Notes under the pieces: generated by a model
What the model was told of the DNA's origin: nothing
Seen by the model: the letters and a program-made list of their open reading frames with translations, nothing else
The model's database searches: none
Part shown: one piece after another, positions 15,361-47,266 of the stretch
Layout: every line of letters begins with the position of its first letter
How positions within the stretch are numbered: position 1 is the first letter of the stretch
Position numbers and translations under genes: made by a program
NCBI GenBank assembly: GCA_963712745.1
Contig: CAVQJC010000006.1
Location: 256,001 to 320,000 of the forward strand
DNA: 64,000 nt
Source: an uncultured Chloroflexia bacterium
GTDB taxonomy: Bacteria > Chloroflexota > Limnocylindria > Limnocylindrales > CSP1-4
Direction of reading: 5' to 3'

Positions 15361-15520
<160 letters not shown>

Positions 15521-15641
15521 AGCCGCCGACGGCATGTCGGCGTGCGGTCGCTCGCGGCACGCGACCGGCCCGCCCCGGCGGGAGCGGTGCGTCCGTCTCT
15601 TCTTGTCGATGCCTCGATGGGGTGGCCGGAGGTCACCAGAC

Positions 15642-16418
15642 TTGGACGCCATCGAGCTCCACGCTATCGCTCGCAGTTTCGAGATCGACGGTTCGCGCCT
15701 GCTCGCGCTCGACGGCATCGATCTGCACGTGGCCGAACGCGAGATCGTGGCCATCGTGGGGCCCAACGGCTGCGGCAAGTCCACGCTGCTGCGCGTGGCA
15801 AGCGGTCTGCTGCCTCCCGATCGGGGCAGCGTGCTGGCCTTCGACTCGACGGTGGCTGGGCCCGACCCGCGGGTGGGGCTGGTGTTCCAGGAGCCACGCT
15901 TGCTGCCGTGGCGCGATGTGCTTGCCAACGTCGCCTTCCCGCTGGAACTGGCGGGGATCGGGCGGAGCGAACGAGAGGATCGGGCCAACCAGGCGCTGCG
16001 GCTGACGGGCCTGGAGGCCTTCGCGCGGGCCTATCCCGACCAACTGTCAGGTGGCATGGCGCAGCGAGCGGCCCTCGCGCGCGCCCTGGCACCCGAGCCC
16101 GATGTCCTGCTCCTCGACGAGCCCTTCAGTGCGCTCGACGCCATGACGCGTGAGCGCCTCGATGACGAGTTGCTCTCGCTGTGGGGCCAGACCGGAACCA
16201 CCATCGTGCTCGTCACCCACAGCATCTCAGAGGCCGTCTACCTTTCCGATCGCGTGCTTGTGATGTCCGCCCGACCTGGTCGCATCGTGGCCGAAGTACC
16301 CGTCGAGGCACCGCGTCCCCGCCACCTCCTGGGCGCCGGTGCCTCGATGTTCAGCGCCGCCGCCGACGATGTGCGTGCTCATCTCACCTCCAACGCTCAG
16401 GCTGGGGCCGCGGCATGA
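15642..16418 (+). CDS. NitT/TauT-family ABC ATPase, riboflavin uptake
   Basis: GPNGCGKST, FQEPRLLPW, LSGGMAQR, LLLDEPF. TTG start with GGAGG RBS. Confidence 0.9.
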   Translation: MDAIELHAIARSFEIDGSRLLALDGIDLHVAEREIVAIVGPNGCGKSTLLRVASGLLPPDRGSVLAFDSTVAGPDPRVGLVFQEPRLLPWRDVLANVAFPLELAGIGRSEREDRANQALRLTGLEAFARAYPDQLSGGMAQRAALARALAPEPDVLLLDEPFSALDAMTRERLDDELLSLWGQTGTTIVLVTHSISEAVYLSDRVLVMSARPGRIVAEVPVEAPRPRHLLGAGASMFSAAADDVRAHLTSNAQAGAAA

Positions 16419-17242
16419 CCGCCACTGCCCCGGGCAGGGATACGCCCGCCGAACTTGCAGCGGCCGATCGTCGGGTAAGCCGTGGACACCGAGTCATCCG
16501 CGACGTGGGCCCGGTCGCCGCCGCAGCCCTGGTCTTCCTCGTGGCCTGGCAGTTGGTCGTGATCGTCGGCGACTACCCGTCCTACATCCTGCCGGGACCG
16601 TTGGTCGTGGCCGAGCGCTTCGTCAGCGGCTGGTTGGAAGGCACCATCGGCCCACACTTCTGGACCACACTGGCCGAGGTGATGCTGGGCCTGGCCGTCG
16701 GCGGTATCGCCGGCATCCTCACCGGCATCCTGCTGGCCCGGTCTCGCCTCGCCGCGCGCATGCTCTCGCCCTACATCGTGGCGGCGCAGGCCACGCCCAT
16801 CCTGGCGCTGGCGCCCCTCATCGCCCTCTGGTTCGGCACCGGCCTGGGCAGCCGTGTGCTCATCTGCGGGCTCATCTGCTTCTTCCCGGTCGCGGTCGGC
16901 ACGATGGTGGGCATCCGCTCGGTCGACCCCAAGCTCATCGAACTGGGCCGCAGCCTGCGAGCCACGCGGCGGCAGCGCCTGTCGCGCATCGAAGTGCCTT
17001 CTGCCCTGCCGCAGATCATGGGCAGCCTGCGCATCGGCGTTACGCTCGCGGTAGTAGGGGCCATCGTGGCCGAATGGGCCGGTGGCGACAGCGGCCTGGG
17101 CGTGCTCATCAACCTCGCGCGCGGCAGCATGTTCGATATCCCCCTGATGTTCGCCGCTCTCTTGACCATCGCCATGCTGGGCGTCGCTCTCTACCTCGTC
17201 GTCGTACTCATCGAACGACACCTCGTCCGCAGTCCCGACTGA
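16415..17242 (+). CDS. ribX: ABC permease, RibX-like riboflavin transporter
   Basis: QATPILALAP, VVGAIVAEW motifs; FMN riboswitch context. ATGA overlap with the ATPase. Confidence 0.75.
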   Translation: MTATAPGRDTPAELAAADRRVSRGHRVIRDVGPVAAAALVFLVAWQLVVIVGDYPSYILPGPLVVAERFVSGWLEGTIGPHFWTTLAEVMLGLAVGGIAGILTGILLARSRLAARMLSPYIVAAQATPILALAPLIALWFGTGLGSRVLICGLICFFPVAVGTMVGIRSVDPKLIELGRSLRATRRQRLSRIEVPSALPQIMGSLRIGVTLAVVGAIVAEWAGGDSGLGVLINLARGSMFDIPLMFAALLTIAMLGVALYLVVVLIERHLVRSPD

Positions 17243-17266
17243 CCACGCGAAAGGATCAACTCCAAG

Positions 17267-18307
17267 ATGGACCGCTCGTTTCCGAACCTTCGTCGTGCTG
17301 TCGGCCTCAGCGCCCTCGCGGCCGTCCTCACGCTGTCGCTGGCCGGGGCAGCCGGGGCAGCCGGGGCATCGAGCGAGGACGACACGGTGCGCACAGAGCT
17401 CACGGTGGGCCTCGGCTACATCCCGAGCGTGCAATTCGCACAGTTCTACTTCGCCGACAAGGCCGGCTACTACGACGAGGCCGGCCTCGATGTGAACTTC
17501 GAGAACAAGATCGATCCCGAGCTGATCACGCTGCTGGCGCGCGGGGCCATCGACGTGGGCATGGCCGACGGCACGAGCGTGATCCCGGCGGTCAGCCAGG
17601 GGATCCCTGTCGTGTACGGAGCCACCATCTACGGCCGTGACCCGAACGTGGTCTTCAGCCAGGCGTCCAGCGGAATCGAGAGTGCAGCCGACCTGGCTGG
17701 GGCGACGATCGGCATCCCAGGGCGCTATGGCTCCTCGTGGGTAGCCCTCCAGGCCCTACTGTCGTCCGCCGGCCTGTCGCCGGAAGATGCTGAGATCGTG
17801 ACGTACCCCCACTTCGGCCAGGGCGTGGCGGTGGCGAACGGGCAGGTCGATGCAGCGACTGGTTTTGTCACCAACGAGCCGGTCCAGCTGGCGCTGCAGG
17901 GACTCGACGTGAACGTACTGCACGTGTCCGATGTCGCTCCCCTGCCCGGCCCCGGCCTGGTGACCGGCAAGGTGACACTCGAGTCCAAGGGTGATGCCCT
18001 GCGCGCCTTCACCGCGGCCACGATCCGGGCCATGGAGGAGATCGCGGCCGACCCTCAGCTCGGGCTCGACGCCACGTTCGCGCGGGTGCCTGAGCTGGCG
18101 GGCGACCCCCAGACCCAGCTGGCGATCCTGCAGGCGACCATCGCCTCGTGGGAAGGCGAGCACGCCGCCGAGCACGGGCTTGGCAGCGTCGATCGCAGCG
18201 CCTGGGAGTCGGGCCTCAAGATCATGCGCTCGATCCCCGGCTCGACCGTGGCGGAAGACCTGACGGTGGACGATCTCGTGACCGACGCGCTGCAGCCGGA
18301 ACGATGA
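17267..18307 (+). CDS. ribY: NMT1/THI5-like substrate-binding protein, RibY-like
   Basis: Signal peptide, LGYIPSVQFA, GIPGRYGSSW, NEPVQL; riboswitch context. Confidence 0.75.
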   Translation: MDRSFPNLRRAVGLSALAAVLTLSLAGAAGAAGASSEDDTVRTELTVGLGYIPSVQFAQFYFADKAGYYDEAGLDVNFENKIDPELITLLARGAIDVGMADGTSVIPAVSQGIPVVYGATIYGRDPNVVFSQASSGIESAADLAGATIGIPGRYGSSWVALQALLSSAGLSPEDAEIVTYPHFGQGVAVANGQVDAATGFVTNEPVQLALQGLDVNVLHVSDVAPLPGPGLVTGKVTLESKGDALRAFTAATIRAMEEIAADPQLGLDATFARVPELAGDPQTQLAILQATIASWEGEHAAEHGLGSVDRSAWESGLKIMRSIPGSTVAEDLTVDDLVTDALQPER

Positions 18308-24316: not shown

Positions 24317-24523
24317 ATGGGCGTCATCATCATCCGTGAGATGGTCGGCAGCAGCCCTGAGTCGTGGAGCGTTGCAGCCGCAGAGGCCGTCGCTCGTGCG
24401 TCTTTGACCGTGCGCAATATCCGCCACGTGGAAGTTGTCCGCCATACGGCTCGTGTCGAGGACGGGCGGATCGCCGAGTACGAAGCAGAACTCAAGATCT
24501 TCTTCGAGTACGAGGGTACCTAA
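24317..24523 (+). CDS. Dodecin (flavin-binding)
   Basis: EMVGSSPESW..A...AV.RA..TVRNI...EV....VEDG.I.EY pattern, 68 aa; strong RBS. Confidence 0.88.
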   Translation: MGVIIIREMVGSSPESWSVAAAEAVARASLTVRNIRHVEVVRHTARVEDGRIAEYEAELKIFFEYEGT

Positions 24524-24554
24524 GGCCACTTATCCACAGCGTGGTAAGCGCGAG

Positions 24555-27500
24555 ATGAGCGCGTCTCACGATGATGCGCCTATGCCCGAGTCGGTGAGCT
24601 CCGAGCGCACTTCCGACGTCCAGCCGCAAGCGGCTGGAGCGTCATACATCTCTGTCCAGGCCGGGGACGTTGACCCCCACCCGTCGGGCCTGGCCATCAT
24701 CGCCAGCAAGATCAGTCCAGCCACGCCGGCACGATCCGTGCTCACGCGCCGGCGATTGTCCGAGTGGTTCGGCCAGCAAGTGCGGGCGCGGCTGATCCTG
24801 GTCTCAGCTGAAGCTGGCTACGGCAAGACGACGTTGCTCAGTGAGTTCGCGCTGGAAACGCGCGACAGGTGCGTGTGGTATCGGATCGAAACGTCGGACG
24901 GCGACTGGATCACGTTCCTCAGCTACATGGTCGCGACCTTGCGCGGGATCTCGCCGGACTTCGGCCGCTCGACGGAAGCACTTCTGCGCAACGTGGCGGC
25001 CATGGGCTCATCGAGGGAGATCGTGCTCGGCCAGTTCCTCGCGGACCTGAGTGCGCTCGATATCAGCCGGGTGGCCGTGATCCTCGACGACTACCACCTG
25101 GTGGAGGCCTCGTCCGACGTGCGCATGATCATGGGACGCATGCTCGAACGGGCGCCTGACGGGATGTACTTCATCCTTGCCGGTCGTGGAAGGCCCAACC
25201 TGGGACTCGGCCGGCTCCTGGCGCAGGGGCGCGTATCTGAGCTCACCATCGACGATCTGCGCTTCACGCGCGCAGAGATCGTAGAGCTGTTCTCCACCGT
25301 CTACGGGCAGCCACTCGATGACGAAGCCTGCCAAGTCATCGCCACTCGGACTGAGGGGTGGGCCGCCAGCCTGCAACTGGTCTCGGCCTCCATCGCCGTC
25401 AGCCAGCCTGAAGAGGTATCGGCCTTCATCGATGCCTTGAGCGGTGCTACGGGGCCGATCTACGAGTTCCTCGCTGAGGAGGTGCTCACGCGCTTGTCAA
25501 CACGGACCCAGCTGATCCTCACGCATGCGTCACTCGTCGATCACGTCCGTCCGGAGTTCGTCGTGGCGGCGCTCTCGGTGACATCCTCTGAGCCGGATCG
25601 CGCGGCTGTCGAGCGTGCCCTCGACGAGGTGGAGACGTTGGGACTGCTCGGTCATCGAGGCAATGCCGCGGGAGGGCGCCGACTCCATCCCCTCTTCCAG
25701 GAGTTCCTGCAGGTCCACCTGCAACGTGACTCGTCTCCGGGTCAGGTCAGGGCCATGCACCACGCCATCGCAACGGAAGCCATCCATGTCGATTGGCTCC
25801 TGGCTGCGCGCCACTTCGCTCTGGCCGAAGAACCAGACGTGGCCATGGATGTCCTCGGGTCCGCGGCGAGTGAAGCGCTGGGCACGGGTGCCTGGGGCGC
25901 GGCGGTCGAGATCGTGGAGTTGATGCCGGAAACGTCCCCACCGACAGCCGTCAAGGTGATCCAGGCACGCGCCCTGATTAGCGACGGCTTTCCCGACAAC
26001 GCACTCGAGGTGCTCGAGGGCATCGACAGGAGCGGGCTCTCGTCGGAGGAACGCGGACTCGTCGGGCTCACCGCCGCGGCGATCCACCACATGAACGGAG
26101 ACGCAGGCCTCCTCACCAGCGAGGTCGAGGCTGTCGCCGACGATACCCAGGTTCCGGCGCCGCTCCGGGACGTCGCCGTCTCCTGGCGCAGGCTGCTGCA
26201 CGCGATCTCGGCGGCAGCATCTCCGATGCCGTGCAATCACTCCGTCACCTCGCGGTTGACCAGCGTCGGGACGGACTCCACTACTTCGCGGTGTCACGCT
26301 TCACAACTCCGCGTACGCGGAGCTGGCTCGCGGTAACTACCAACACGCACGAAACCTGGCGTCAGAGGCGGTTGAGCACCTGGAGCGCACTGAGGACGCA
26401 TCGGGCATCATCGCCTCGACGTGCTCCAGTCGCAGCGACCGCCACCGCGGAGCTGGAGATACTCGAGAGAGGGACTTCGACTTGGCCATCTCGACTGCGA
26501 TGCGGCCGGACGCTACGGCGGACGCAATCGCGGACGCGGCATACATGCATGCTGTGTGCGGACGTCGGATCGAAGGCGAGATCGCTCCTCGCCAGGCTTG
26601 AGCGAGGTGACGCTCGCTGGTCCCGCGAACTGGCGACAGAGCGCCAGCGTCTCTACGCGACCATCGCGCTGCCCTGGCGAGGCGAAGGCAGGCTCAGGAC
26701 GCCGACAGGGCACGTCGACGCTCGATAGCCTGGAGTCGCAGATTATCGACGCACAATCCCGGAGGCAGTTCTCGCTGCCACTCTCGCGGTAATGAGGCGC
26801 GCTCCCGAGGCGCAGGACGCCACTTGCACAGGCGGCCCGTGGAGGCTTGCGGCAGGACAGAACGCCTGGCGATGGCTGGCACGCGCACGAATACTCGAGG
26901 CCGCAGCTCAGCGCGACGGCAGCGGGCCCTCGCACTCTGGATTCGGAGAGTGAAGAGGGTCGGCGCTCGCTATTCTGGAGCTGGCGGACGTGATTGCAGC
27001 CGGCGATAGGCACCCTGGTGCTCTCTTCCCGACGCGCTCGAGCGCTCCATCCTTCGCGAGCCATCTCGGTGGGTACCAGCGCTTCGTCGCCAGAGTCCAG
27101 ATATGGAACAGGACGAGGACGCGAGTGCTGCGGCGTCGCTCTCGCCCGCTTCGGCTCGCCGACGACGCCCAAGTTCTTCGTGACTTTGAACGCTCGGCCG
27201 ATGGCAAGTCACGGCGTCGGGATGGCGACACAGCTGATCCGCCGGGTTAGTCCGACTGTCCGTGTCCACGACCTCGGTCTCACAAGTTACGAAATCGGCG
27301 ACCGTATCGTGACTCTTACAGACACTCGGCGAAAGTCGGCCGCTCTATTGCTCTACTTGGTGACACGGCCAGGTTTGGCGGCAACACGCGAGCAGGTGAT
27401 GGACAGCCTGTGGCCAGACCAGAACCCGAAGTCAGCCACGAACAGCCTCCACCAGACCGTCTTCTTCCTTCGCCGAGATCTCGAGCCTTGGTATGAGGAC

Positions 27501-27997
27501 GGCTCCACTGCCGACTATGTTCACATGGAGACCGATTTGGTGTTCCTCGACAAGGACTTGTTCCAGGTCGACAGCGTGGCGTTCTCGCGACAGGCGTCAG
27601 ACATCTTGTCGACCGGCACCGCAATGGCGCGCGAGGCCGGAGATGCTCGCGCTCTACCAGGGCAGCTTCGCGCCCGAGTTCGAGTACGAGGAGTGGGCCG
27701 AGGAGTGGAGGACGACGCTCCACGGTACGTTTCTTCACCTAGCCCACGCGACCTCGATTGCGCTGGTGGACGTCAGGCGCTACACCGAGATGCATCGACG
27801 TACTGTCGCCGATTGCAGCGCTCGATCCCACTGCGTTCGAACTCCGGGCACGACTGGTTGCGTGTCTCGCCAGAGTCGGCGCGGTTGACGCAGCACAGGC
27901 GCACTATCGAAGCATGGCATCGGCTCACGAACGGGACTTGGGTCTGCCCGCTCGTTCATACGAGGAAATCGTCAAGGGACTATCGGACTCACGCTGA
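24555..27997 (+). CDS. MalT-like STAND ATPase + TPR + wHTH/BTAD transcriptional activator (multiple frameshifts)
   Basis: AEAGYGKTTLL, ILDDYH, TEGWAASLQL, FLAEEVL, HPLFQEFL; C-terminal LLYL...REQVMDSLWPD, LYQGSF...EEWAEEWR. The reading frame jumps repeatedly between about 26210 and 27800. Confidence 0.8.
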
Positions 27998-28207
27998 CTA
28001 GTCGTACGTACTAGTACTTATAGGGCCCCGAGCCACCCCGTACCTAACCTTGCCCATGCAACAGTCCCCCGAGGCTGAAGCAACGACCACGGAGCGGGAC
28101 TAGGTCCGCATCGAAGGGCTCGAGAGAGGGGACCTTCGAAGTCAAGCCCGAGAAGCGCTCCCCATCAAGCCGGACGCGGTTTCCGCGCCAGGCACGAGGG
28201 GAAACCG

Positions 28208-28339
28208 ATGAATCCCAACGGCAACAGTCAAGCCCTGGTAGTCGATATGCCTCGCAATCTCTTGTCGAGGCTCACGCTGCTTTCGACTCTTCTCGCGACA
28301 CTCGTGGTCGCGGGCAGCGCGGGCATCAGACCCATCTGA
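28208..28339 (+). CDS. Small signal-peptide-like precursor (43 aa, or 30 aa from ATG 28247): MNPNGNSQALVVDMPRNLLSRLTLLSTLLATLVVAGSAGIRPI
   Basis: Hand translation; RBS GAGGGG at 28196-28201; basic n-region, hydrophobic h-region, short VAGSAGIRPI tail. Below the ORF-track length cutoff. Confidence 0.65.
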   Translation: MNPNGNSQALVVDMPRNLLSRLTLLSTLLATLVVAGSAGIRPI

Positions 28340-28438
28340 AGGGACTAGCGCACTCCCAGTACCAAGGTTGGATGGGGAGTTGACAGCTATCAATCGAGAT
28401 ACTGAGCGGCCTCCTTGCTTCCACGGTCAGGAGTCGCG

Positions 28439-29823
28439 TTGCACTTGTCAAGACACCTTCGGATTCTTCTGGTAGTCGTTCCTCTGGCGGCTGTCACGCT
28501 GCTCGCGTGCGAGTTGGTCGTATGGCCCATCGATGAGTTTGATGGGCCTCTTGTGGTTGGTCGCCTCGCCTTCTGGGTCGCGGTCACTCTCCTAGCGTCT
28601 GCCTCACCTGTGCACGTGCCGCGCGGCTCGATGGTGAGCGTCGCCGCTGCCCCAATCATCGCGGCGGGCATGCTGGGCGGTCCTACAGCAGCCGCCGTGG
28701 TGGGCGTCTTTGGCACTCTCGAGGTTCGAGAGCTCCGGGGCCAAGTCCCTTGGTATGGGGTGGTGTACAACCACTCGATCGCCGTGGTCGCCGCCGTGGC
28801 ATCCGGGCGGTGTACGAAACCAGTCGTGCGGCGGGGGAGCATCGCCAGCACGAGCGGGCTGGTGGGGCGGCGTGGCGGGCGTGCATCGTCTTCGTGCTCG
28901 TCAATCACCGTCGCTATCCTCGCTTGCGGTCGCTCTCCGAGAGATGCGACCATATCGCGGCCGTGCTGACGGTCCGATTTCCGGTCGTTCGGTCTGGGCC
29001 TCGTGCGGCCTAACCCCCATCGCCTGGCTGATGGCGCTGGCGTACCTCTTCGTCGGCCCCCTTGTCGTGTTCGCGGTCGCGCATGCCGCTGTACACGACT
29101 CGTGCCGCCTTCAAGGCCGTGGTCGATGTCCGTGACATGTTCACGCAGACCGTGAAGGCGCTCGCGTCCGCTATCGACGCGCGGGATCCGAGCACCAAGA
29201 AGCACTCGGAGCACGTCTCCGGCATCGCCGTCGAGATCGGCCGGGCCATGCATCTCAGCGAGCCCGAACTCGAACAGCTCGAGTGGGCCGGTCTGTTGCA
29301 CGATATCGGGAAGATTGGCATCCGTGACTCGGTCCTGCTCAAGCCCGAGAAGCTCACCCGCGAAGAGCGGATCCTTATGAACGAACACCCGGTCAAGGGT
29401 GAAGAGATCCTCAGGGATGTCGATCAGCTGGCGGCGGAACGCCCGCTCATCCGGCACCACCACGAGTGGTACAACGGCTCGGGCTACCCGGACCGCCTCA
29501 TCGGCGAGGAGATCCCACTGCTGGCACGGGTGCTCCACGTTGCCGACGCGTTCGAGGCCATGACGGCGTCGCGCCCGTACCGCCCGGTCCCGCTGACCAC
29601 CGAGGAAGCGCTCGAGGAACTCCAGCGCTACTCGGGCATCCAGTTCGATCCTGTCGTGGTCGATGCCTTCTCGCGCACGAAGACCGCGACGCAGGCCTCA
29701 CAGGATGATGACGAGCCGGGCGAGCCTGAACAGCAGCCGATAACGGTGCCCACGCTGGGCCAGGTCGCCGCTGCCAGGACCAAGGGCACACTGCCCGCGA
29801 GCTCAGCCCCCGCCGAGCCCTAG
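28439..29823 (+). CDS. Integral-membrane sensor + HD-GYP c-di-GMP phosphodiesterase (frameshifted at about 28800-29080)
   Basis: AGGAG RBS and TTG start; multi-TM N-terminus; ARDPST..HS..V, LLHDIGKIG, HHHEWYNGSGYPD, VADAFEAMT, RPYR. Confidence 0.85.
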
Positions 29824-29912
29824 TCGGAGAGTCCCGAGCATATGGCGGGCTCAGCCCCGCAGACTTCCGAGCGCGAGCGACCCTGCCTGATCGCGTCCGG
29901 ACCTGAAGTCTG

Positions 29913-31904
29913 ATGCTGCTGATCGCGATCGCCCTGGGTGTCGTCGCCGGTCTCATGGCAGGTGGCCGGATCTCGAATCTCCTGTCGGCGCAGCTTCGCT
30001 ATGGCTGGCTTATCGTGGCTGGCCTGCTTCTGCGCGTGATCACGCAGTGGCTCATCGACCAGGGCGTCGACGTGGTCGATCAGTTGCGTCTGCCCCTGTT
30101 CACGCTCTCGTTCGGCTTGCTGGTGGTCGCCCTTTGGCTGAACCGCTCGCAGCCCGGACTGCTGCTCGCGATGGTGGGAGTGGCCGCCAACGGGATCGCC
30201 ATCCTCCTCAACGCCGGCTACATGCCCGTGTATCTGCCGGCGGTGGAGATGGCCGGTCTTACCTTGGCCGACCTGTCGCCCACCTTCAACGTGCTGCTAC
30301 CCGAGGAACTGGGACTCGATTTCCTGCTCGCTGGTGGGCCATTGGGCGACGTCCTGCCCATCGCTATCCCGCTGATCGCAAACGTCATCAGCATCGGCGA
30401 TGTCCTCCTCGCCGCTGGAGTGGGCTGGTATCTGTTCTCGGCCATCGCCCGCGGCTCGGCCGACCCCGAGTCGGGCGTGGTCTCGATGTGGAACGCCAAG
30501 CCTGCCGCTGTGGACCACCCAGTCTTCACGGCGGATCAGGCCGGCCTGGACCGCCCAGTCATCGGTGGCTCGGCCATGGGACCAGGCCTGGGCACGCCAT
30601 CGGCTTCCGAAGCGGTGGATGCAGTCACCGCGGAACCGCGGACGGTCGCCCCCGGCCTCGGCCAGCGGGTCCGGGAACACCCCTACATTCGACTAGCCCG
30701 CGATGCGCGCTTCTCAGCTTTCTGGCTGGCGGGCACGATCAGCCTGTTCGGCGACCGACTCCACCAGATCGCCCTCGGCGTGATGGTTCTCGGCGTCACG
30801 GGCTCGGCCATGCAGACCGGTTTCGTGTTCCTGGCGGCGACCCTGCCCAACCTCTTCCTCGGGCCGATCGCAGGGACGTTCGTGGACCGCTGGGATCAGA
30901 AGCACGTGCTGATCGTCAGCGACCTCATGCGCGCAGGACTCGTGCTGACGCTGCCCTTCGTGGCCGATATCAACATCTGGCTCGTCTACCCGGTCGTCTT
31001 CGTGGTCACGACCATCAGCCTGTTCTTCCGCCCGGCCAAGGCGGCCATCATCCCCCGCATCGTGCGGCGGGAGGACTTGACCCCGGCCAACGGCGCCATC
31101 TGGACGGGTGAGACGATGGCCGACATCGCGGGCTATCCACTGGCCGGCGTGTTCGTGGCATTTCTTGGCACCAATCTGGCCCTGGCCTTCTGGGTCAATT
31201 CGTTGACGTACGTCGTCAGCGCGGTCCTGCTCGCGGGGCTCGTGATCCCGCCGGCGGTCAGGGAGGTGGGCCCCCGTGTCAGCAGCGCGATGGATGCCTT
31301 CGTCGAGGAGTTGCGCGAGGGCTGGGAGTTCCTGCGCCACGACGCAGCCCTGTTCCAGAACACGCTCGTGAGCGTCGTCGCGCAGCTGACGGTCGGAGCC
31401 ACCCTGGCCCTGATGGTGGTCTACGCCCAGCGCTCGCTCGAGGGCGAGACGATCCCGTATCCCGAGAGCTACGCCGTCATCGAAGCGGCGATCGGCCTTG
31501 GCAACCTCGTCGGCGGGTTCGTCGTCGGTGCCATCGGGGCACGACTGCGCAAGGGCTGGTTGGTCATCACCGGCTTCGCGGTGATGGGAGTGGCCACGAT
31601 CATCCTGGGGCTGACTTCCAACGAGCTCGTGGCTGTCGGTGCGGCGGTGGTCGTGGGCGTGTTCAACCTGGTCTATGTCATCCCCAGCCAGACGCTCTTC
31701 GCCGAGCGTACGCCCGAGGGCATGATGGGACGCGTCGTTGCCATCCGCTCCAGCATCGTCATGGGTGCACTCACCGGGGCCATGGCTATCAGCTCCGGAC
31801 TCGCCGACCATGTCGATGCGGGCATGATCATCGCGGCCACAGGTGTCCTCACGGTCATCGCCGCGGTCGTCGCCACCTGGCTGCCGGCTGTACGTGACGC
31901 GTAG
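29913..31904 (+). CDS. DUF5317-like domain fused to an MFS (DHA3/MFS_3-type) exporter
   Basis: N-terminal about 180 aa with AN....LNAGYMPV, LGDVLP, SIGDVLL; linker; then a 12-TM MFS (ISLFGDRLH, GTFVDRWD, SDLMR, GMMGRV). One continuous 663-aa ORF. Confidence 0.85.
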   Translation: MLLIAIALGVVAGLMAGGRISNLLSAQLRYGWLIVAGLLLRVITQWLIDQGVDVVDQLRLPLFTLSFGLLVVALWLNRSQPGLLLAMVGVAANGIAILLNAGYMPVYLPAVEMAGLTLADLSPTFNVLLPEELGLDFLLAGGPLGDVLPIAIPLIANVISIGDVLLAAGVGWYLFSAIARGSADPESGVVSMWNAKPAAVDHPVFTADQAGLDRPVIGGSAMGPGLGTPSASEAVDAVTAEPRTVAPGLGQRVREHPYIRLARDARFSAFWLAGTISLFGDRLHQIALGVMVLGVTGSAMQTGFVFLAATLPNLFLGPIAGTFVDRWDQKHVLIVSDLMRAGLVLTLPFVADINIWLVYPVVFVVTTISLFFRPAKAAIIPRIVRREDLTPANGAIWTGETMADIAGYPLAGVFVAFLGTNLALAFWVNSLTYVVSAVLLAGLVIPPAVREVGPRVSSAMDAFVEELREGWEFLRHDAALFQNTLVSVVAQLTVGATLALMVVYAQRSLEGETIPYPESYAVIEAAIGLGNLVGGFVVGAIGARLRKGWLVITGFAVMGVATIILGLTSNELVAVGAAVVVGVFNLVYVIPSQTLFAERTPEGMMGRVVAIRSSIVMGALTGAMAISSGLADHVDAGMIIAATGVLTVIAAVVATWLPAVRDA

Positions 31905-31978
31905 CTTCGGCACGGCGCGCTCGTCAACGCGATAATCATTCGAACGCTATCGCGCACGACCAGGGAGAGCCCCGCTAC

Positions 31979-32721
31979 ATGACCGACCAACAGAAGCCTG
32001 AAGACGCCGTACCCGAGGAGGAGCCCGCGGCGGAGGAGCCCGCGGCGGAGGAGCCGGAACGAGCGACCGAGCCGGTCAAGGGTTCGTCGACCAAGGCCGC
32101 GGCTAGTGGCGGTGGCGGTGGCGGTGGCGGTGGCGTCGAAGAGCTTCCGTACATCGACGACCCGGTAAGCAAGTGGTGGATCGCGGTCATCATCGCGGTC
32201 TTCGCATTGATCTTCGCGTGGGCGGTGCTTCTTGGCCGCGGCGGTCTGCTGGGCGATATCCTCGACAGCGCCGAGCCAACCGCTTCCCCGGAGTCGACGC
32301 TCGCGGTTAGCCCATCAGCCGAACCCACGGACGAGGCCAGCACCGAACCCGTCTCGGGGACCATCGAGCCGACCGCCGAGCCCACGCCCGAGCCGACCGC
32401 CGAGCCCACGCCCGAGCCGACCGCCGAGCCCACGCCCGAGCCGACCGCCGAGCCCACGCCCGAGCCGACCGCCGAGCCCACGCCCGAGCCGACCGCCGAG
32501 CCCACGCCCGAGCCGACCGCCGACCCACGCCCGAGCCGACCGCCGAGCCCACGCCCGAGCCGACCGCCGAACCATCCATCGGACCCTGCCCCACGCTGGA
32601 CCCCGAGGCCAGCCTTTCGCCCGACGAGTCGATCAGGCCCTCCCCCGTGCCCTGCTACACGCCAGAGCCGAGCACGTTGCCGGAGCCGAGCGGTCTACCC
32701 TCTAGCGACGTCCTGGACTGA
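31979..32721 (+). CDS. Single-TM membrane protein with PT/PE repeat stalk (1-nt frameshift at about 32523)
   Basis: LPYIDDPVSKWW plus TM helix, then AEPTPEPT repeats. One copy lacks a G (cgacccacg versus cgagcccacg). The corrected frame ends ...LPSSDVLD* at 32721. Confidence 0.75.
32366..32570. repeat. 24-bp tandem repeat GAGCCGACCGCCGAGCCCACGCCC, about 8.5 copies
   Basis: Directly visible; encodes EPTAEPTP. Confidence 0.95.
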
Positions 32722-32791
32722 CCACGATGGGGTAGAAGGCGCGAGGTATCGGCCGCCCCCGCCCGACCGGTATGCGCCTGCGCGCGCGGCA

Positions 32792-33427
32792 ATGGTTCGT
32801 GACCAACTCGAGGCACGCGGTATCCATGACCGAGCAGCCCTATCGGCGATGGCGACGGTGCCCAGGGAGGCCTTCGTCCCACGCGGCCGCGAAGGGGACG
32901 CGTATTCGGACGGCCCGCTCTCCATCGGACACGGGCAGACGATCTCGCAGCCGTACATGGTGGCGCGCATGACGGCTGCGCTGGACCTGGCCACCCTGGG
33001 CTGGCCATGGGCCGGGCTAGCCCCATCCTTCCTCGATGTCGGCACCGGCTCCGGGTACCAGGCAGCGGTGCTGGCGCAGTGCGGGGCCCGGGTCACGTCG
33101 ATCGAGCGGGAGCCCGATTTGGCGGAGACCGCTCAGCAGCGGCTGCTCGACCTCGGCTACCAGGTCGAGGTGCTGGTTGGCGACGGCAGCGCCGGCTACC
33201 CTCCGCACGCGCCGTATGCGGGAATCATCGTGGCGGCCGGTGCCCCGATGGTGCCTCGGCCGCTCGAATCCCAGTTGACTGATGGTGGGCGGCTCGTGAT
33301 CCCGGTCGGTGGGATCCGCTCGCAGCAGCTCACCATCGTGAAGCGCACCGGCAAGGACTTCGAGACGCGAACGGCCGACGCGTGCGTGTTCGTTCCTCTG
33401 GTGGGCACGCACGGTCATCCCAGCTGA
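32792..33427 (+). CDS. pcm: Protein-L-isoaspartate O-methyltransferase
   Basis: VPREAFVP, GQTISQPYMVA, LDVGTGSGYQAA, GDGS.G, QL..GGRLVIPVG, FVPLVG. Start approximate. Confidence 0.92.
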   Translation: MVRDQLEARGIHDRAALSAMATVPREAFVPRGREGDAYSDGPLSIGHGQTISQPYMVARMTAALDLATLGWPWAGLAPSFLDVGTGSGYQAAVLAQCGARVTSIEREPDLAETAQQRLLDLGYQVEVLVGDGSAGYPPHAPYAGIIVAAGAPMVPRPLESQLTDGGRLVIPVGGIRSQQLTIVKRTGKDFETRTADACVFVPLVGTHGHPS

Positions 33428-36446: not shown

Positions 36447-36600
36447 TCCGGAAGGCTAGCGGTCATGTCCAGTCGGCCGGATGGTTCCTTGGTCCCATCG
36501 CGAGTCCACCACATCGCACCCCTCCGACCACGAGAACCCCCGGGGGTGGCCCATTCGTACCCCGGGGGCAGCGGCGAGACCGTTGCTAGTGTGGGATGCA

Positions 36601-38238
36601 ATGGCCATCCCCATCCTGCTCTTCGTGGTCGCGCTGGCCGTGCGCGTAGTCACGGCGATGCTGTTCGCCGAACCGGCCTACCCCGACGCGCTCTACTACG
36701 TGAACTTGGGGCGTGAGCTGGCCGCCGGTGGCGGCTTCAGCGTGGACTACATCTGGAACTTCGTGGAGGTCGGCGGGGTGCTGCCCGAGCAAGGCAGCTT
36801 GCCCATCCCTTCGAATGCGCATTGGATGCCCCTCGCGGCGGTGGTGCAGGTGCCCTTCATCTGGATCTTGGGCCCGACCGCGGTCGCGTCGGCGCTTCCG
36901 TTCTGGCTGGCCGCGGCAGCGACGTCTCCCCTGGCCTATCTCATCGGCCGCGACGCCGGGATGCCCGGCTGGCAGGCAGCGGCCGCCGGCTTGCTGGTGG
37001 CCGTACCGGCGGGCGTGTCGGCGTACCTCGGTCAGCCCGACAACTTCGCCCTGTTCATGTTCCTGGGCGCGCTCGCGCTGTGGCTCTGCGCAAGGGGCCT
37101 GCGGGGCCACAGGTGGTCCTTCGCAGCCGGCGGCCTTGTCGTCGGCCTGGCCTACCTCTCGCGCAACGACGGTGTGCTGCTGGGCGTGCCGTTCGCTCTG
37201 GCCTTCGTCCACGATCTGTTGCGCCGCCCAAGAGCCTCTCGCATCGGCTGGCCCGCAGCGTTGCTGTGTGCCGGTGGCTTCGTCCTGGTCGCCGCGCCCT
37301 GGTTGTTCCGTCAGCTGGACGTCTTCGGCTCACTCTCGCCCTCGTCGGTCGGCGGCCGCATCCTCTTCATCACCGAGTACCGCGAGCTCTACAGCGTGAG
37401 CACCGAGACCACCCTTGAGTCGTTCCTGTCGCAGGGTATCGGCCCCATCATCGAGAGCCGACTGCGGGGCCTGTGGGATGCCCTGCTGATCTTCGTGGCC
37501 GGGCCCATGCTGGCGCTGCTCGTACCATTCACGCTCGTCGGGGCATGGGTCAGTCGACGCAGCCGCGACTTCCTGCCGTGGTTCATCTATACCCTGACGC
37601 TGTTCGTCTTCACCGCGCTGGTCTCGGCCGTGCATGTCCCCTACGGCACGTTCATCCACTCGGCCGTGGCCCTGGTGCCCCACGCGTACCTGCTGGTGAT
37701 GCTCGGCGTAGCAGCCGCCGTGGGCTGGGTGGCAGCACGCCGCACGTCATGGGACGCCCCGCGCGCCAGCCGCAACTTCAGCCTGATGCTGGTCGGTGTC
37801 ATCGCCGCGGTGTCGGTGGTCGCGACGCTCTCCACCACGAGTGCGTGGCGACGTGAGCGCGACAGCCGGGTGGAAATCCTGGCCGCCCTCGCGGCCGACG
37901 CGCAGCCTGGCGACGTCGTCATGAGCCCTGACGCCGGCGCGTACCGGTACCACGGCGGCTGGGCCGGCGTGGTCACGCCCGACGATCCCCTGGCTGTGGT
38001 CGAAGAGGCATTGCGGCGATACGACGTGCGTTGGCTGGCACTGGAGAGCGCGCATATCACCGCCGGCCTTCGCCCCGTGCTTGCCGGCGAGCTCAGGCCG
38101 GACTGGCTCTCCGAACCGCTCGTCGTGCTGCCGCCCCTGCCGGCCAAGGAGGAAGACGGGCAAGCTGCTGAGCGGCTGCCGCGGGCGGCGCTGTACGCCG
38201 TCTGCCTTGGTCCTGCCGACGCGCGGTGCGACAAATGA
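36601..38238 (+). CDS. GT-C (PMT_2/ArnT-like) glycosyltransferase
   Basis: YPDALYY, HWMPL, LAYLSRNDG, PWLFRQ; about 11-13 TM segments. Confidence 0.75.
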   Translation: MAIPILLFVVALAVRVVTAMLFAEPAYPDALYYVNLGRELAAGGGFSVDYIWNFVEVGGVLPEQGSLPIPSNAHWMPLAAVVQVPFIWILGPTAVASALPFWLAAAATSPLAYLIGRDAGMPGWQAAAAGLLVAVPAGVSAYLGQPDNFALFMFLGALALWLCARGLRGHRWSFAAGGLVVGLAYLSRNDGVLLGVPFALAFVHDLLRRPRASRIGWPAALLCAGGFVLVAAPWLFRQLDVFGSLSPSSVGGRILFITEYRELYSVSTETTLESFLSQGIGPIIESRLRGLWDALLIFVAGPMLALLVPFTLVGAWVSRRSRDFLPWFIYTLTLFVFTALVSAVHVPYGTFIHSAVALVPHAYLLVMLGVAAAVGWVAARRTSWDAPRASRNFSLMLVGVIAAVSVVATLSTTSAWRRERDSRVEILAALAADAQPGDVVMSPDAGAYRYHGGWAGVVTPDDPLAVVEEALRRYDVRWLALESAHITAGLRPVLAGELRPDWLSEPLVVLPPLPAKEEDGQAAERLPRAALYAVCLGPADARCDK

Positions 38239-39887
38239 GCGTGTACATCCCCTTGGGCCTGTATCTGCTGGCGCTGGCCGTCCGCCTGCTGGCGGCAGCA
38301 GAGATCCCTTTCCCTACGACCGAGCCCAGCGCCTACTACGTCGGCGTGGCACAGAACCTAGTGGCCGGGAACGGACTCGTCAGCGACGCGGTCTGGAGCT
38401 ACGCCACGCCGCCGTTGGAGGCACCCAAGCCGGCCTTCGAGCTGTGGCTGCCGATGAGCACCTTCGTGTCGGCGGCGGCCATGTCGGTGCTGGGTTCCAC
38501 GTTCTGGGCAGCCCAGGTGGGTTCGTCACTGCTGGGGGCAGCCGTGGCGCCGCTGGCCTGGGCCATCGGCCGCGAAGCCGCGAATGCCCACGGGCTCGAC
38601 ATGAGACGCGGAAGAGCCGTGGCGATCACCTCGGGTCTGCTCGCCGCCGTGCTCAGCCCGCTCGTCCTCGGTTCCGCCGTACCCGATTCCTACACACCCT
38701 TCACCGTCTTCCTGTTGGCTGGGGCGCTGCTCGTACCGAGGGTCATCGGCTTCCGCGACGGACACGACGAGGCCAGGGGTCCAGACATCCTCGCCGGCCT
38801 TGGGCTCGGTGTGGCCCTGGGACTGGCCTACCTCTCGCGCCAGGAGGTCATCTGGCTAGGTCTGACCTTCGTCCTCATGCTGGCCTGGACCGCGCGCACG
38901 AGGCCGGCCGGCAGGCGCCTCCGGGAGTCCGTCAGGCGCCTGTGGCCGGTCGTGGCCGGTGGCCTGGTGATAGTGGTCCCGTGGCTGCTGCGCAACGCAC
39001 TCGAGCTGGGTGGCCCGTTTCCTGGACAGGCAGTGGAGAACATGTTCCTCCTCGAGAACGAGGACATCTTCGCCTGGCGCGACCGCCCCGATGTGGCCAC
39101 GTACCTGGGTCAGGGCCTGGGCACGGTGCTGTGGAACCCGCTGGTCGCAGCCTGGGACAGCCTCCTCAACGTAGTGATCTTGCCGGCCTTCCCAGTCGGC
39201 ATCGCCGGCCTGATCGCCCTGGTCGGCATGCGGCGCTCCCCAGCGCTGCGTCGCCCGACCGCGCTCGTGGCTGTGCTTGTCAGCGCGCTACTCACGTTCG
39301 CGACCACGATGCTGTTGTTCCCCGTAGCCACCCTGTGGGGCACGTTCATGCATGCCTCGGGGCCGCTGCTGGTGGGCCTTGGTGTGGTGGCTGCGCTTGG
39401 CGGCGACGCCCTGCTGGCTCGCGTCTCGACACGCCGGGGCTGGGAGCGACCCAACATCATCCTCGCGCCCATCGCCCTGGTGGCCACGGCGGCAGTGATG
39501 ACCGCCTTCAGCGTGGCAGTCCTCTCCGAGCAGTCGCGTTCGACCCAGGCGCGATACGCGGCGCTGGCGACCCAGCTCCGCGAGGTCGCCGTGGCGGACG
39601 GGGAGGCCGTTCCCCCCACGCTGATCAGCGACCATCCCATGTGGCTCGCCGCTGCGCTCGGAGGCCAGGCGGTCGTCCTGCCCGACGAGGATCTCGATGC
39701 CATCCTCGAGCTGGCGGATGTCTTCGAGGCGCCCTGGGTCGTCGTCATCGACGAGCGCGGGCCCTACCCCGAGGCCCTGCTCAGGGAGGACGCACGGGGC
39801 TGCCTGACGACCGATCCAGTGCCCCTGGAGGCGGCAGACGAGGGCTCATGGCTGTTCCGGCTGGCCGATGCGTGCACGTCATCGTGA
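38235..39887 (+). CDS. GT-C glycosyltransferase, paralog of the upstream gene
   Basis: SAYY, LWLPM, LAYLSRQE, PWLLRN; ATGA overlap with the upstream gene. Confidence 0.75.
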   Translation: MSVYIPLGLYLLALAVRLLAAAEIPFPTTEPSAYYVGVAQNLVAGNGLVSDAVWSYATPPLEAPKPAFELWLPMSTFVSAAAMSVLGSTFWAAQVGSSLLGAAVAPLAWAIGREAANAHGLDMRRGRAVAITSGLLAAVLSPLVLGSAVPDSYTPFTVFLLAGALLVPRVIGFRDGHDEARGPDILAGLGLGVALGLAYLSRQEVIWLGLTFVLMLAWTARTRPAGRRLRESVRRLWPVVAGGLVIVVPWLLRNALELGGPFPGQAVENMFLLENEDIFAWRDRPDVATYLGQGLGTVLWNPLVAAWDSLLNVVILPAFPVGIAGLIALVGMRRSPALRRPTALVAVLVSALLTFATTMLLFPVATLWGTFMHASGPLLVGLGVVAALGGDALLARVSTRRGWERPNIILAPIALVATAAVMTAFSVAVLSEQSRSTQARYAALATQLREVAVADGEAVPPTLISDHPMWLAAALGGQAVVLPDEDLDAILELADVFEAPWVVVIDERGPYPEALLREDARGCLTTDPVPLEAADEGSWLFRLADACTSS

Positions 39888-40092
39888 GTACTGGCGCAGG
39901 GACGGCCCCTCTCAACCCCTATACTCCGAGCCACATGGACCGCGGGACGCCGCGTGCGCGGCGGCAAGGAACCGGGAGACAAGAGGCATGCACAGGGGCC
40001 ACAGCCCCCGGCATGCGACTCGAAGTTGTCGGCCAAGCAATCCGGGGCACGATGCTGCGGCTCGAGCCTCACCCCAGGGAGAGGAGTGTGGA

Positions 40093-40839
40093 ATGACTCC
40101 GGGCGAGTACCAGGGACCTGATCGACGCCGAGGCGGCCCCGACCGGCGAGAGCCTAATGCGCGGGTCAAGATCCTGCTCGTCGATGACCACGCCCTGTTC
40201 CGGGTGGGCATGCGGCAGACCCTTGACGCTGAGGACGACTTCGATGTCGTGGCCGAAGCTGACGACTCCCGCAGTGCCATCGATGCGGCGGCGGCGAGCA
40301 CGCCGGATATCGTGCTGCTCGACCTGTCGCTGCCGGCCCCCGGTGGGATCGAGACGACGCAGCGAGTGAAGCGCGAGGTGCCCAGCGCCGGCATCATCGC
40401 ACTGGCCGCGACCGAGGACGAGGACCAGCTCTTCGAGGCCATCAAGGCCGGCGCGGCTGCGTTCCTGCTCAAGGACATCGGACCAGAGGACCTTGTCACC
40501 ATCATCCGCCGGGTCAACAACGGCGAGTACCTCATCAACGACAAGGTCTTCGCGCGCCCGTCAGTCGCGAATCGTGTGCTCAAGGAATTCCGTGAGCTGG
40601 CCGTCTATGGGCAAGAAGCTGCCCCCATCTTCGCGCCCCTTTCCCCGCGTGAGGTCGAGATCCTCGACAACATCGCCAAGGGCATGACCAACAAGCAGGT
40701 GGCCTATGCCCTGTCGATCAGCGAGCAGACCGTCAAGAACCACATGAGCTCGATCCTCCGCAAGCTCTCGGTCAACGACCGCACGCAGGCCGTCGTCTAC
40801 GCCATGAAGCAGGGCTGGATCAGGATCCCCGAGGATTGA
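40093..40839 (+). CDS. NarL/DegU-family response regulator
   Basis: LLVDDH, LLDL, LLKD, LuxR HTH LSPREVEIL...NKQVA..ISEQTVKNH. Confidence 0.93.
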   Translation: MTPGEYQGPDRRRGGPDRREPNARVKILLVDDHALFRVGMRQTLDAEDDFDVVAEADDSRSAIDAAAASTPDIVLLDLSLPAPGGIETTQRVKREVPSAGIIALAATEDEDQLFEAIKAGAAAFLLKDIGPEDLVTIIRRVNNGEYLINDKVFARPSVANRVLKEFRELAVYGQEAAPIFAPLSPREVEILDNIAKGMTNKQVAYALSISEQTVKNHMSSILRKLSVNDRTQAVVYAMKQGWIRIPED

Positions 40840-44770: not shown

Positions 44771-44804
44771 AGTCGTCATGGATCCTCGCTAGGGAGATGT
44801 CGAG

Positions 44805-46232: not shown

Positions 46233-46242
46233 GAGCTAAGCC

Positions 46243-47262: not shown

Positions 47263-47266
47263 CGCA

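Follow-up and report, generated by a model that had tools for sequence, protein, structure and literature searches.

A small membrane peptide beside DUF5317 and an HD-GYP enzyme in Limnocylindria: a possible cyclic di-GMP feedback module

Small membrane proteins are known as feedback regulators of sensor enzymes, as in the pairs MgrB-PhoQ, SafA-PhoQ and MzrA-EnvZ, and genes for the turnover of cyclic diguanosine monophosphate (c-di-GMP) are a known theme among the cargo of c-di-GMP riboswitches. Here, we describe a gene cassette that can be compared with both. It lies in a 64,000-nucleotide (nt) stretch of DNA from an uncultured Chloroflexia bacterium of the Limnocylindria (assembly GCA_963712745.1, contig CAVQJC010000006.1; hereafter the window, whose numbering we use), and its genes all run on the + strand in the order STAND regulator, small open reading frame (ORF), multi-transmembrane (TM) HD-GYP protein, and DUF5317 fused to a major facilitator superfamily (MFS) protein. 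We give an even chance to the reading that a small membrane peptide under c-di-GMP control acts together with DUF5317 on c-di-GMP enzymes, in an MgrB-like feedback. That the cassette would represent, in its Limnocylindria version, an old membrane module of three parts we hold with the same halfway confidence. As read from its relatives, the module appears to consist of a single-pass peptide of ~25-35 amino acids (aa), a sensor of ~6 TM helices joined to a c-di-GMP enzyme (HD-GYP, sometimes GGDEF-HD-GYP), and DUF5317, while the MFS domain fused to DUF5317, the STAND/BTAD regulator upstream and a c-di-GMP riboswitch gating the small ORFs appear to be gains of this class. The module looks more like a feedback device inside the cell than like a signal between cells; this is suggested by the peptides sitting directly behind c-di-GMP riboswitches of two classes.

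The likeness to MgrB-type regulators lies in a peptide of fewer than 50 aa with one predicted TM helix, encoded beside membrane sensor enzymes, whose synthesis would follow the signal of its own pathway, in this case c-di-GMP acting on a riboswitch that relatives carry. The build is read from the sequence, and the c-di-GMP control is indicated by aptamers in relatives only. In contrast to MgrB, to which the peptide has no sequence relation, control would be exerted by an RNA aptamer and not by a response regulator, the target would be a c-di-GMP enzyme and not a kinase, DUF5317 would be a third conserved partner, and both binding and effect are putative. With the c-di-GMP riboswitch regulons (RF01786, RF01051 and RF03167) the system shares aptamers at or above the curated score in the 5' leaders of relatives. 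It differs from them in that a 30-aa peptide, together with a 10-codon upstream ORF, comes first among the cargo, that two aptamer classes gate the same cargo type in paralogous modules, and that the window's leader matches no Rfam family.

The original prediction, made from the letters of this stretch, had named four co-oriented genes, and these are present as it read them (Pfam, translations), in a genome of 4.2 Mb with ~65% G+C on 20 contigs that is 84.6% complete by marker genes. The features on which the argument turns are the following.

28208..28241, + strand: uORF1, an upstream ORF of 8-10 codons with its own Shine-Dalgarno (SD) sequence and the tail K-[G/P]-[W/F]-stop (spacer alignments)
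28247..28339, + strand: sORF2, a predicted 30-aa single-pass membrane peptide, MPRNLLSRLTLLSTLLATLVVAGSAGIRPI (conservation; ratio of nonsynonymous to synonymous variation, pN/pS)
28445..29823, + strand: sensor of ~6 TM helices ('HD_TM') with an HD-GYP phosphodiesterase domain, frame-broken (HD_5, tblastn)
29913..31904, + strand: DUF5317 (aa 27-174) fused to MFS_1/MFS_3 (DHA3-like), 663 aa, intact (Pfam)
24555..28001, + strand: regulator with STAND ATPase, TPR, winged helix-turn-helix (wHTH; Trans_reg_C) and BTAD parts, frame-broken (Pfam, tblastn, and a frame plot of G+C at third codon positions, GC3)
28091..28162, + strand: structured leader RNA of the window's subclade (RNAalifold, 11 sequences)

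The spacer between the regulator and the HD-GYP gene is 440 nt long and contains the small ORF; its units were defined by DNA alignment of 13 orthologous spacers and frame-by-frame reading. In the window's genus uORF1 has 10 codons (M-x-P-N-x-x-[VI]-K-P-W-stop). Five nt past its stop begins sORF2, which has no obvious SD; it encodes a basic N-end followed by ~20 hydrophobic residues and, after a small-residue motif, a short tail. One extra base in the window's uORF1 sets ATG 28208 in frame with sORF2 and yields a 43-aa form (28208-28339); the two ORFs are separate in the other orthologues read. Of the ORF of 30-43 aa originally proposed, the 30-codon gene at 28247-28339 is therefore real and the 43-aa form is an artefact of a 1-nt indel. 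The good ribosome-binding site credited to it is an SD that serves uORF1.

Conservation makes the case for sORF2. It is kept in 14/14 orthologous loci with an HD-GYP gene (frame-broken in four, L014-L017; loci are numbered L, genomes G and contigs C) and in 29 further loci of the class (frame-broken in L219), a total of 43 loci, five of them frame-broken. Its length is 28-32 aa in most loci and 36 in L192, and its class consensus has a hydrophobic stretch between M-[KR]-x-[RK] and A-G-G-A-S-[LF]-[KR]-G-[FW]-stop, with the small-residue motif and the tail as the most conserved part. The tail codons vary synonymously (K as AAG or AAA, R by five codons, G as GGC, GGT or GGG, P by four codons). 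For 7 intact sequences, pN/pS is 0.41 in frame vs 1.15 and 2.63 in the other frames, and variable sites by codon position 1/2/3 number 20/10/24. When searched against the whole genome, the sORF2 profile finds a single site (E 4e-07; next match 0.33). No Pfam or NCBIfam family covers the peptide, the 27 peptides searched having given scattered single matches at E≥0.003. By these marks sORF2 is a real gene, because it is kept in 43 loci with conserved length, synonymous tail codons, a pN/pS of 0.41 and a single copy; the conservation that the original prediction had made a test of its small ORF, under coding selection, was found.

By script, uORF1 (tail K-[G/P/S]-[W/F]-stop) was found in 31/38 loci listed; the script missed it in the window and 6 others, in 4 of which the tail is visible by eye. 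It has no TM segment and is conserved in length and tail only. The distance between its stop and the start of sORF2 is -1 to 25 nt, and exactly 5 nt across the window's subclade. Both ORFs (window 28230-28241 and 28325-28339; also L192-L221) end in the same type of tail, [K/R]-[G/P]-[W/F/I]-stop, and their last 12 bases are nearly identical in several loci. The tails also tend to be paired across clades, KPW in uORF1 going with RPI or RPF in sORF2, KGW or KGF with KGW, KGF or RGF, and KIF with RVL; exceptions are L021, L212, L217, L220 and L221.

The peptide travels with the enzyme. The HD_TM sensor is found in 54/401 Chloroflexota genomes sampled, being present in 22/23 of the window's family, in 13/16 and 2/2 of two other families of the class, and in 0/4 of a sister family with small genomes. 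An sORF2 of 28-36 aa lies directly 5' of the HD-GYP gene in 29/29 loci from other genomes. The full order of regulator, small ORFs, 6TM-HD-GYP and DUF5317-MFS holds in 16/20 longer loci from two families of the class; two of the remaining four have no detectable regulator and two are divergent or cut. The same DUF5317-MFS fusion is present in 120/120 relatives listed, and full-length fused orthologues share 54-82% identity. L023 (G018) and L028 (G019), from deeper species of the genus, have DUF5317-MFS without regulator, peptide or HD-GYP, and there it sits behind a membrane-protein-like ORF of 766-778 aa; the single c-di-GMP-II aptamer of G018 is on another contig, and that of G019 is 250 kb off on the same contig.

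Control by c-di-GMP is suggested by the leaders of the relatives. A nucleotide block conserved across spacers in differing frames was the first visible sign of an aptamer, and Rfam (E≤1) places c-di-GMP-II (RF01786) between regulator and uORF1 in 18/19 sister-lineage loci; 13/19 matches reach the gathering score of 53.5 bits, the best at 68.6 bits (E 3e-13). With a model (R1) built from the Rfam-identified aptamer loci, the aptamer is found in 18/20 longer loci plus L021 and L022, which are deeper species of the window's own genus. The window and 11 other subclade loci give no R1 match, Rfam gives 0 matches at E≤10 on window positions 27800-28600, so that this locus itself has no recognisable c-di-GMP-II aptamer, and at gathering score the whole window holds an FMN riboswitch only, elsewhere. 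The window's subclade appears to have lost the c-di-GMP-II aptamer and to carry another conserved RNA structure in its place. In this RNA (28091-28162), long-range pairing of GGAG with CUCC is predicted around a hairpin (28111-28139) whose purine-rich loop is invariant, and RNAalifold predicts 21 pairs, 12 of them with compensatory change; single-sequence folding of the window's leader gave z = -1.29, which is not informative. The hairpin was considered as a diverged c-di-GMP aptamer and rejected on the same Rfam and R1 searches.

As a separate observation, the source genome has 37 matches to the c-di-GMP-II model (e.g., C5:76792-112590, C7:68230-75337 and C17:159898-173667). In two stretches that were checked (L249, L250), Rfam gives 9 matches to c-di-GMP-II-GAG (RF03169) or c-di-GMP-II-GCG (RF03170), 8/9 of them at gathering score. 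Most end 10-18 nt 5' of the start of proteins with a signal-peptide-like N-end or of methyltransferase-like proteins. Sister species have 4-29 copies of such aptamers (G024 none) and deeper species 0-2.

A second source of evidence is the Limnocylindria loci of DUF5317 paralogues, where one or two tandem TM peptides of ~30 aa follow DUF5317. Type A ends in ...LALT-x-GAG-[MIL]-RW-[YD] and type B in ...SSALVLEAG-[HQR]-RW-[NKR]. Pattern matches beside DUF5317 number 35 in 30/57 full-length loci; of 26 further matches, at least 22 lie in loci cut short and are unclassed in position. A c-di-GMP-I (RF01051) or c-di-GMP-I-GGC (RF03167) aptamer reaches gathering score in 20/22 paralogue loci, and in 19 of those 20 it lies between DUF5317 and the peptides, ending ~20-40 nt 5' of the first peptide start. 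The genes 3' of the peptides differ by locus (aconitase, thiamine pyrophosphate enzyme, response regulator), and because of this the paralogue peptides are read as the regulated cargo of the aptamer and not as leaders of one constant downstream gene. Micro-peptides of the same kind beside DUF5317 thus appear to be gated by two aptamer classes that are unrelated to each other. In L066, L074, L075, L077, L095, L097 and others (~6750-7100), two different genes for ~30-aa TM peptides stand in tandem after one c-di-GMP-I-type aptamer; the second type has a conserved Glu near the end of the TM helix (...LEAG-x-RW).

The linkage of DUF5317 to c-di-GMP enzymes extends beyond the class. The source genome has two DUF5317 genes, the second of which (C20:63599-64243, minus strand) ends 6 nt 5' of the gene for a GAF-GAF-GGDEF cyclase. 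With 8 GGDEF and 3 HD_5 genes in this genome, both DUF5317 copies adjoin one of these 11, which by a rough estimate would be very unlikely by chance (~1e-4). A full-library search returned 1683 relatives of DUF5317 at E≤0.001, and DUF5317 is present in 148 of the best 150 representatives, with a fusion to MFS_3 in 25 and to HD_5 in 1. Neighbourhoods were read from two scans of species genomes of 80 loci each, one mostly non-Chloroflexota and one Limnocylindria. In the mostly non-Chloroflexota set, an HD-GYP and/or GGDEF gene adjoins DUF5317 on the same strand in 69/80 loci, of which 54 have DUF5317 followed by GGDEF-HD-GYP (Bacillaceae, Paenibacillus and relatives) and 12 have HD-GYP followed by DUF5317 (Atribacterota, an Ignavibacteriales metagenome-assembled genome (MAG), a Pseudomonadota MAG, Thermaerobacter and others); of the 11 loci without such a neighbour, 6 end at a contig end. 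The Limnocylindria set has a GGDEF/HD-GYP neighbour in 52/80. Several phyla share the arrangement, and it occurs with either gene order. The N-ends of the partner enzymes carry 5-7 predicted TM helices. In five distant loci this domain shows homology to HD_TM of the window (hmmsearch E 1e-28 to 1e-41), and in the Bacillaceae GGDEF-HD-GYP proteins the homology is only weak. In the window, the HD_5 domain (PF13487) reaches 138.8 bits (E 1.9e-40; cut-off 27.2), with the strings HDIGK and HHEWYNGSGYP in the translation. DUF5317 (PF17248) scores 85.8 bits against a cut-off of 25 (E 4e-24) and has the polar residues N, N.G.MP, D and S.GD that are invariant in this family of membrane proteins, and the MFS part also lies above cut-off (MFS_1, PF07690, 102.9 bits; MFS_3, PF05977, 84.4 bits). 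The proposed DUF5317-MFS fusion is accordingly an intact gene of 663 aa with Pfam matches to both parts.

Peptides of the same build accompany these distant enzymes. Among 25,425 open frames from the 80 mostly non-Chloroflexota loci, the sORF2 profile gives weak matches (E 0.006-0.05) in 8 non-Chloroflexota loci, all ending 30-110 nt 5' of a 6TM-HD-GYP gene, for example MSRIYRVVLALLALVLAGGANFQWR and MKINKAKLISLLISVMALLLAGGAKFRWR. In Bacillaceae and Paenibacillus, the gap from DUF5317 to 6TM-GGDEF-HD-GYP contains an ORF of 29-35 aa ending in ...ALTSG-[FWY]-[KR]-x-x. A strict pattern (basic N-end, hydrophobic run, small-residue motif and short tail) gave 50 matches, 49 of them immediately 5' of an HD-GYP gene on the same strand and the 50th likewise, at a contig end. 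A single-pass peptide of ~25-35 aa is thus found 5' of 6TM-HD-GYP in Bacillota, Atribacterota and others. Loci with a peptide total 53/80 once two that only the profile found are added, along with L137, a MAG labelled Chloroflexia in which the cassette is arranged as in Limnocylindria. By exact look-up, some of these ORFs are in public records as a 29-30-aa 'hypothetical protein' or 'putative membrane protein'. The co-occurrence of DUF5317, small hydrophobic peptides and HD-GYP/GGDEF genes that the original prediction called for is therefore seen across phyla. Atribacterota-type loci also show a raiA RNA (173-175 bits) ~1.5-1.9 kb 5' of the peptide/HD-GYP/DUF5317 module (L160 902-1118, L162 2741-2957 and L170 2820-3036).

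How such a module might work can be outlined in a few steps. A rise in c-di-GMP would cause the riboswitch to permit synthesis of the peptide, possibly with read-through into the HD-GYP and DUF5317-MFS genes. The peptide would insert in the membrane with its N-end inside and join DUF5317 and the TM sensor of the enzyme, whose activity would change, most simply by an increase of the phosphodiesterase. The level of c-di-GMP would thereby be pulled back and the feedback loop closed. DUF5317 would act as a membrane partner or sensor of c-di-GMP enzymes and not as a peptidase.

Several points weigh against this feedback reading. Whether regulation is ON or OFF is a guess, as is the sign of any effect of the peptide. 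Searches of the window and of 12 loci from other phyla gave no c-di-GMP riboswitch, so that the link to riboswitches belongs to the class and not to this very locus. The peptide profiles of Bacillota and Limnocylindria gave an hhalign probability of 0.8%, at which homology is not demonstrable; the likeness of the Bacillota peptides is one of place, size and build. With the queries used, 28/80 Limnocylindria DUF5317 loci have no GGDEF/HD-GYP neighbour, and related genomes among the loci are not independent counts. Moreover, a membrane subunit leaves unexplained why uORF1, which has no TM segment, bears the same K-[G/P]-[W/F]-stop tail, and why the tails of uORF1 and sORF2 change jointly between clades. 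The prediction of a complex between the HD-GYP TM domain (24-row alignment) and the peptide (27 rows) scored 0.00 twice, and counts neither way.

The tails speak for a secreted signal, an alternative that we regard as unlikely. It would have a signal-peptide-like precursor cut after the AGGA, TSG or GAG motif, leaving a tail of 3-6 aromatic and basic residues to be sensed outside by the 6TM sensor, with DUF5317 cutting or presenting the peptide and MFS exporting it in Limnocylindria. It is the sole reading that gives the conserved tails, that of uORF1 included, an obvious job: the small-residue motif and tail are the best-conserved part of the peptide, and uORF1 keeps the tail alone, as though the activity lay there. 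In its basic-hydrophobic-small layout the peptide is similar to a Sec signal peptide, the three parts co-occur across phyla, and DUF5317 is a membrane protein with invariant polar N, N.G.MP, D and S.GD. On the other side, nothing supports the proposal that DUF5317 is a peptidase that cleaves the precursor: 46 DUF5317 sequences compared with 6 A24 prepilin peptidases of the same genus gave an hhalign probability of 0.1%, and the best match of the DUF5317 profile to PDB sequences (E 0.38) shows no likeness to solved structures. Nor does anything support MFS as the peptide exporter. The fusion is present in 25/150 nearest representatives and in 0/68 HD-GYP-bearing loci of the mostly non-Chloroflexota set outside Chloroflexota, and was seen only in Limnocylindria-type records among the loci fetched, so export by MFS cannot be a general step. 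In addition, riboswitch gating would link production to the cell's own c-di-GMP, and the tails are alike (aromatic plus basic) in distant phyla, for which a membrane-interface anchor fits at least equally well.

The agr system consists of the precursor AgrD, the peptidase AgrB, the receptor kinase AgrC and AgrA, and the cassette resembles it in that multi-TM proteins and a regulator are encoded next to a small peptide that is precursor-like and membrane-associated. In contrast to AgrD, however, the peptide has no Cys or thiolactone region (0/27 aligned peptides) and a tail of 3-6 residues; Pfam finds neither AgrB nor HATPase in the cassette proteins, the fusion holding DUF5317 and MFS only; the 'receptor' is an HD-GYP enzyme and not a kinase; and the regulator is of the STAND/BTAD and not the LytTR type. 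The specific agr-like mechanism proposed for this locus is thus unsupported and looks unlikely. Phr, SHP/Rgg and PrgQ are Bacillota pheromones derived from signal peptides in which the C-terminal few residues are active, and here too there is a short precursor with a basic N-end and a hydrophobic core and an adjacent TPR-bearing regulator (STAND-TPR). The cassette differs in that no Opp-type, Eep or PptAB genes were seen in it, and that the module lacks the STAND regulator in other phyla, as do two loci of the class.

A broader form of the signalling idea, a peptide relay spanning phyla, is also doubtful. A gated precursor of ~30 aa would be handled by DUF5317, and its [K/R]-x-[W/F] tail read by the 6TM HD-GYP/GGDEF sensor in the same cell or in neighbours, the replacement RNA of the window's subclade being a new ligand-sensing leader. 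If true, this would make DUF5317 a new kind of intramembrane processing or presenting protein, acting via its invariant Asp, Ser and Asn, and a riboswitch- or promoter-gated precursor would link the state of c-di-GMP inside the cell to a signalling peptide.

We put at a similarly low level the possibility that the peptide is a structural subunit that stabilises DUF5317 or DUF5317-MFS and has no regulatory role, as KdpF and AcrZ are small subunits of their pumps. The peptide gene adjoins those of its putative partners on the same strand, the small-residue motif would suit tight packing of helices, and a paralogue peptide follows DUF5317 even beside a GAF-GGDEF enzyme without a 6TM sensor. Yet a subunit would be expected to be produced together with its partner, and the paralogue aptamer, coming after DUF5317, gates the peptides only. 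Furthermore, DUF5317-MFS occurs without the peptide in L023 and L028, and with the queries used no such peptide accompanies the second DUF5317 of the source genome.

It is quite improbable that uORF1 and sORF2 are cis-acting leaders, forming the expression platform of the riboswitch by translation coupling or by ribosome pausing at K/R-G/P-aromatic-stop, with no function of the free peptide. TnaC, SecM and MifM are regulatory nascent peptides, and the likeness to them lies in short upstream ORFs with a conserved C-terminal motif at the stop, before a regulated gene. uORF1 fits this best, being short, conserved in length and tail only, and having its stop within -1 to 25 nt of where sORF2 begins; its tail is like that of sORF2, in nearly identical DNA in some loci, and conserved hairpins follow sORF2. 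A cis-acting role may hold for uORF1 alone. For sORF2, in contrast, the TM-like build, basic N-end and conserved length are things that a pausing peptide does not need, and with its tail at the peptidyl-transferase centre its TM part could not yet have left the ribosome. For the same reason, a force-sensing arrest peptide of the SecM/MifM type was rejected: 30 residues are too short for the TM part to leave the tunnel. Besides, no conserved gene follows in the paralogous loci, where the genes after the peptides are mutually unrelated, like peptides occur in Bacillota where no riboswitch was found, and some are called as 29-30-aa proteins in public records.

The state of the locus in the assembly needs separate comment. 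The original prediction had described an intact HD-GYP domain and a STAND activator; the domains stand (HD_5 E 1.9e-40), whereas the genes themselves are frame-broken in the assembly. With an intact orthologue of 1135 aa as query, tblastn recovers the window's regulator in 5 pieces and 3 frames over 24651-27976, and the HD-GYP gene falls in 3 frames; the GC3 frame plot agrees for both. Among 16 orthologous regions of the window's genus, intact copies are present in L019, L020, L021, L022 and L027 (in L027 and L019, regulator 1135/1142 aa and HD-GYP 467/470 aa), and at least 5 other subclade genomes, on long contigs, are also frame-broken, at different break points. Short-read contigs of four public runs were aligned to 24400-31950 and read within the parts they cover. 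They show 0 gaps against the clean-frame parts of the window and 1-2-nt gaps, with few substitutions, at 26336-26565 (n=5), 26907-27177 (n=13), 27028-27177 (n=7) and 28729-28899 (n=4), and one base is missing at 29081, the exact site of a frame change. Because the gaps coincide with frame changes and the clean parts are gap-free, the breaks are likely assembly indels, a conclusion that relates to near-identical contigs and not to this very population. The breaks (26200-27220 and 28700-29100) fall in clusters in the two genes that evolve fastest, whereas dnaB, lexA and DUF5317-MFS remain open, and this may reflect consensus errors where strains differ. In one RNA run (X20), a 504-nt contig of a relative touches 28228-28254 and 28521-28548; the library can hold DNA, and we do not conclude transcription from it. 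That the small ORF is no gene and the cassette dead in this organism is very hard to credit: many breaks in STAND and HD-GYP, also in at least 5 subclade genomes and next to an open DUF5317-MFS gene, would suit decay, but the peptide is conserved with a coding signature, intact copies exist, the break points vary among genomes, and the near-identical short-read contigs have their clustered 1-2-nt gaps at the breaks.

The class-specific regulator begins at TTG 24435 or ATG 24555, its start being uncertain. In the window, AAA_22 (E 1.5e-06) and Trans_reg_C (E 7.5e-07) are above cut-off despite the broken frame, and the intact orthologue in L027 has BTAD at 33.9 bits (E 4.7e-08), AAA_22 at 32.3, TPR_19 at 30.7 and Trans_reg_C at 24.3 bits, slightly below cut-off. 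An NTPase, TPR and wHTH-BTAD in one protein (L027) make it a STAND, SARP-like activator by domain content. Its domain order, with the NTPase first, is the reverse of that in AfsR. Two further elements flank the small ORFs.

28003..28048, + strand: post-regulator element of nested palindromes (28003-28025) followed by a CCCCGTACCTAAC box (28036-28048) (alignment by eye)
28353..28434, + strand: spacer 5' of HD-GYP with a hairpin (28353-28379), a -10-like GATACT (28398-28403) and an SD, AGGAG (28429-28433) (alignments)

By eye, the palindrome box is nearly invariant in ~10/12 subclade loci and the CCCCGTACCTAAC box in ~8/12. The element may be a putative promoter or regulator binding site, and the STAND/BTAD protein probably activates the promoter region directly 3' of its own stop, at the palindromic box 28003-28025. 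A promoter scan gave no match to the sigma-70 consensus, and its sole terminator-like site is inside the HD-GYP gene. The hairpin at 28353-28379 is conserved, and other clades carry a TGnTAGACT-like box at the position of GATACT.

As for the surroundings, lexA and dnaB precede the cassette on the + strand and a PCMT methyltransferase gene comes after DUF5317-MFS. This isoaspartyl methyltransferase ORF (31979-33427, +) has an N-terminal extension of ~270 aa with a Gly run, a TM-like stretch and PT/PE repeats. A PMT_2 glycosyltransferase (36481-38238) begins 4.5 kb past the cassette end, a LuxR-type response regulator with a HisKA_3 kinase lies at 39868-42197, and a Tad-like set (43541-48199) of REC+AAA_31 CpaE-like protein, T2SSE ATPase and two T2SSF proteins begins 11.6 kb past it. 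The Tad pilus and surface-glycan genes that had been put forward as outputs of the cassette are indeed present, although nothing ties them to it. The FMN riboswitch aptamer (15362-15517, +; 74 bits against a gathering score of 66.2) stands immediately 5' of + strand ORFs at 15396-18307.

The domains and the riboswitch classes are known, while the trio and the peptide family are undescribed in the literature searched. No paper naming DUF5317 or PF17248 was found, and among papers on c-di-GMP-II riboswitches with HD-GYP, on HD-GYP with small membrane proteins, and on c-di-GMP-I-GGC, none treats the module by title or abstract. In the parts consulted, an Anoxybacillus genome paper counts GGDEF and HD-GYP proteins and mentions neither the peptide nor DUF5317 (PMC2614493).

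DUF5317 is a widespread membrane protein, and its constant company of HD-GYP and GGDEF enzymes would give it a first functional handle. The ~30-aa peptide is left off current maps of c-di-GMP networks, being uncalled or recorded as a 'hypothetical protein', and this gap in annotation includes the cultivable Geobacillus, Parageobacillus, Anoxybacillus and Paenibacillus, in which the module is directly testable. That two aptamer classes have the same cargo suggests that small membrane peptides may be a regular output of c-di-GMP sensing, and the loss of the aptamer together with a new conserved RNA in the window's subclade could show how such leaders are replaced.

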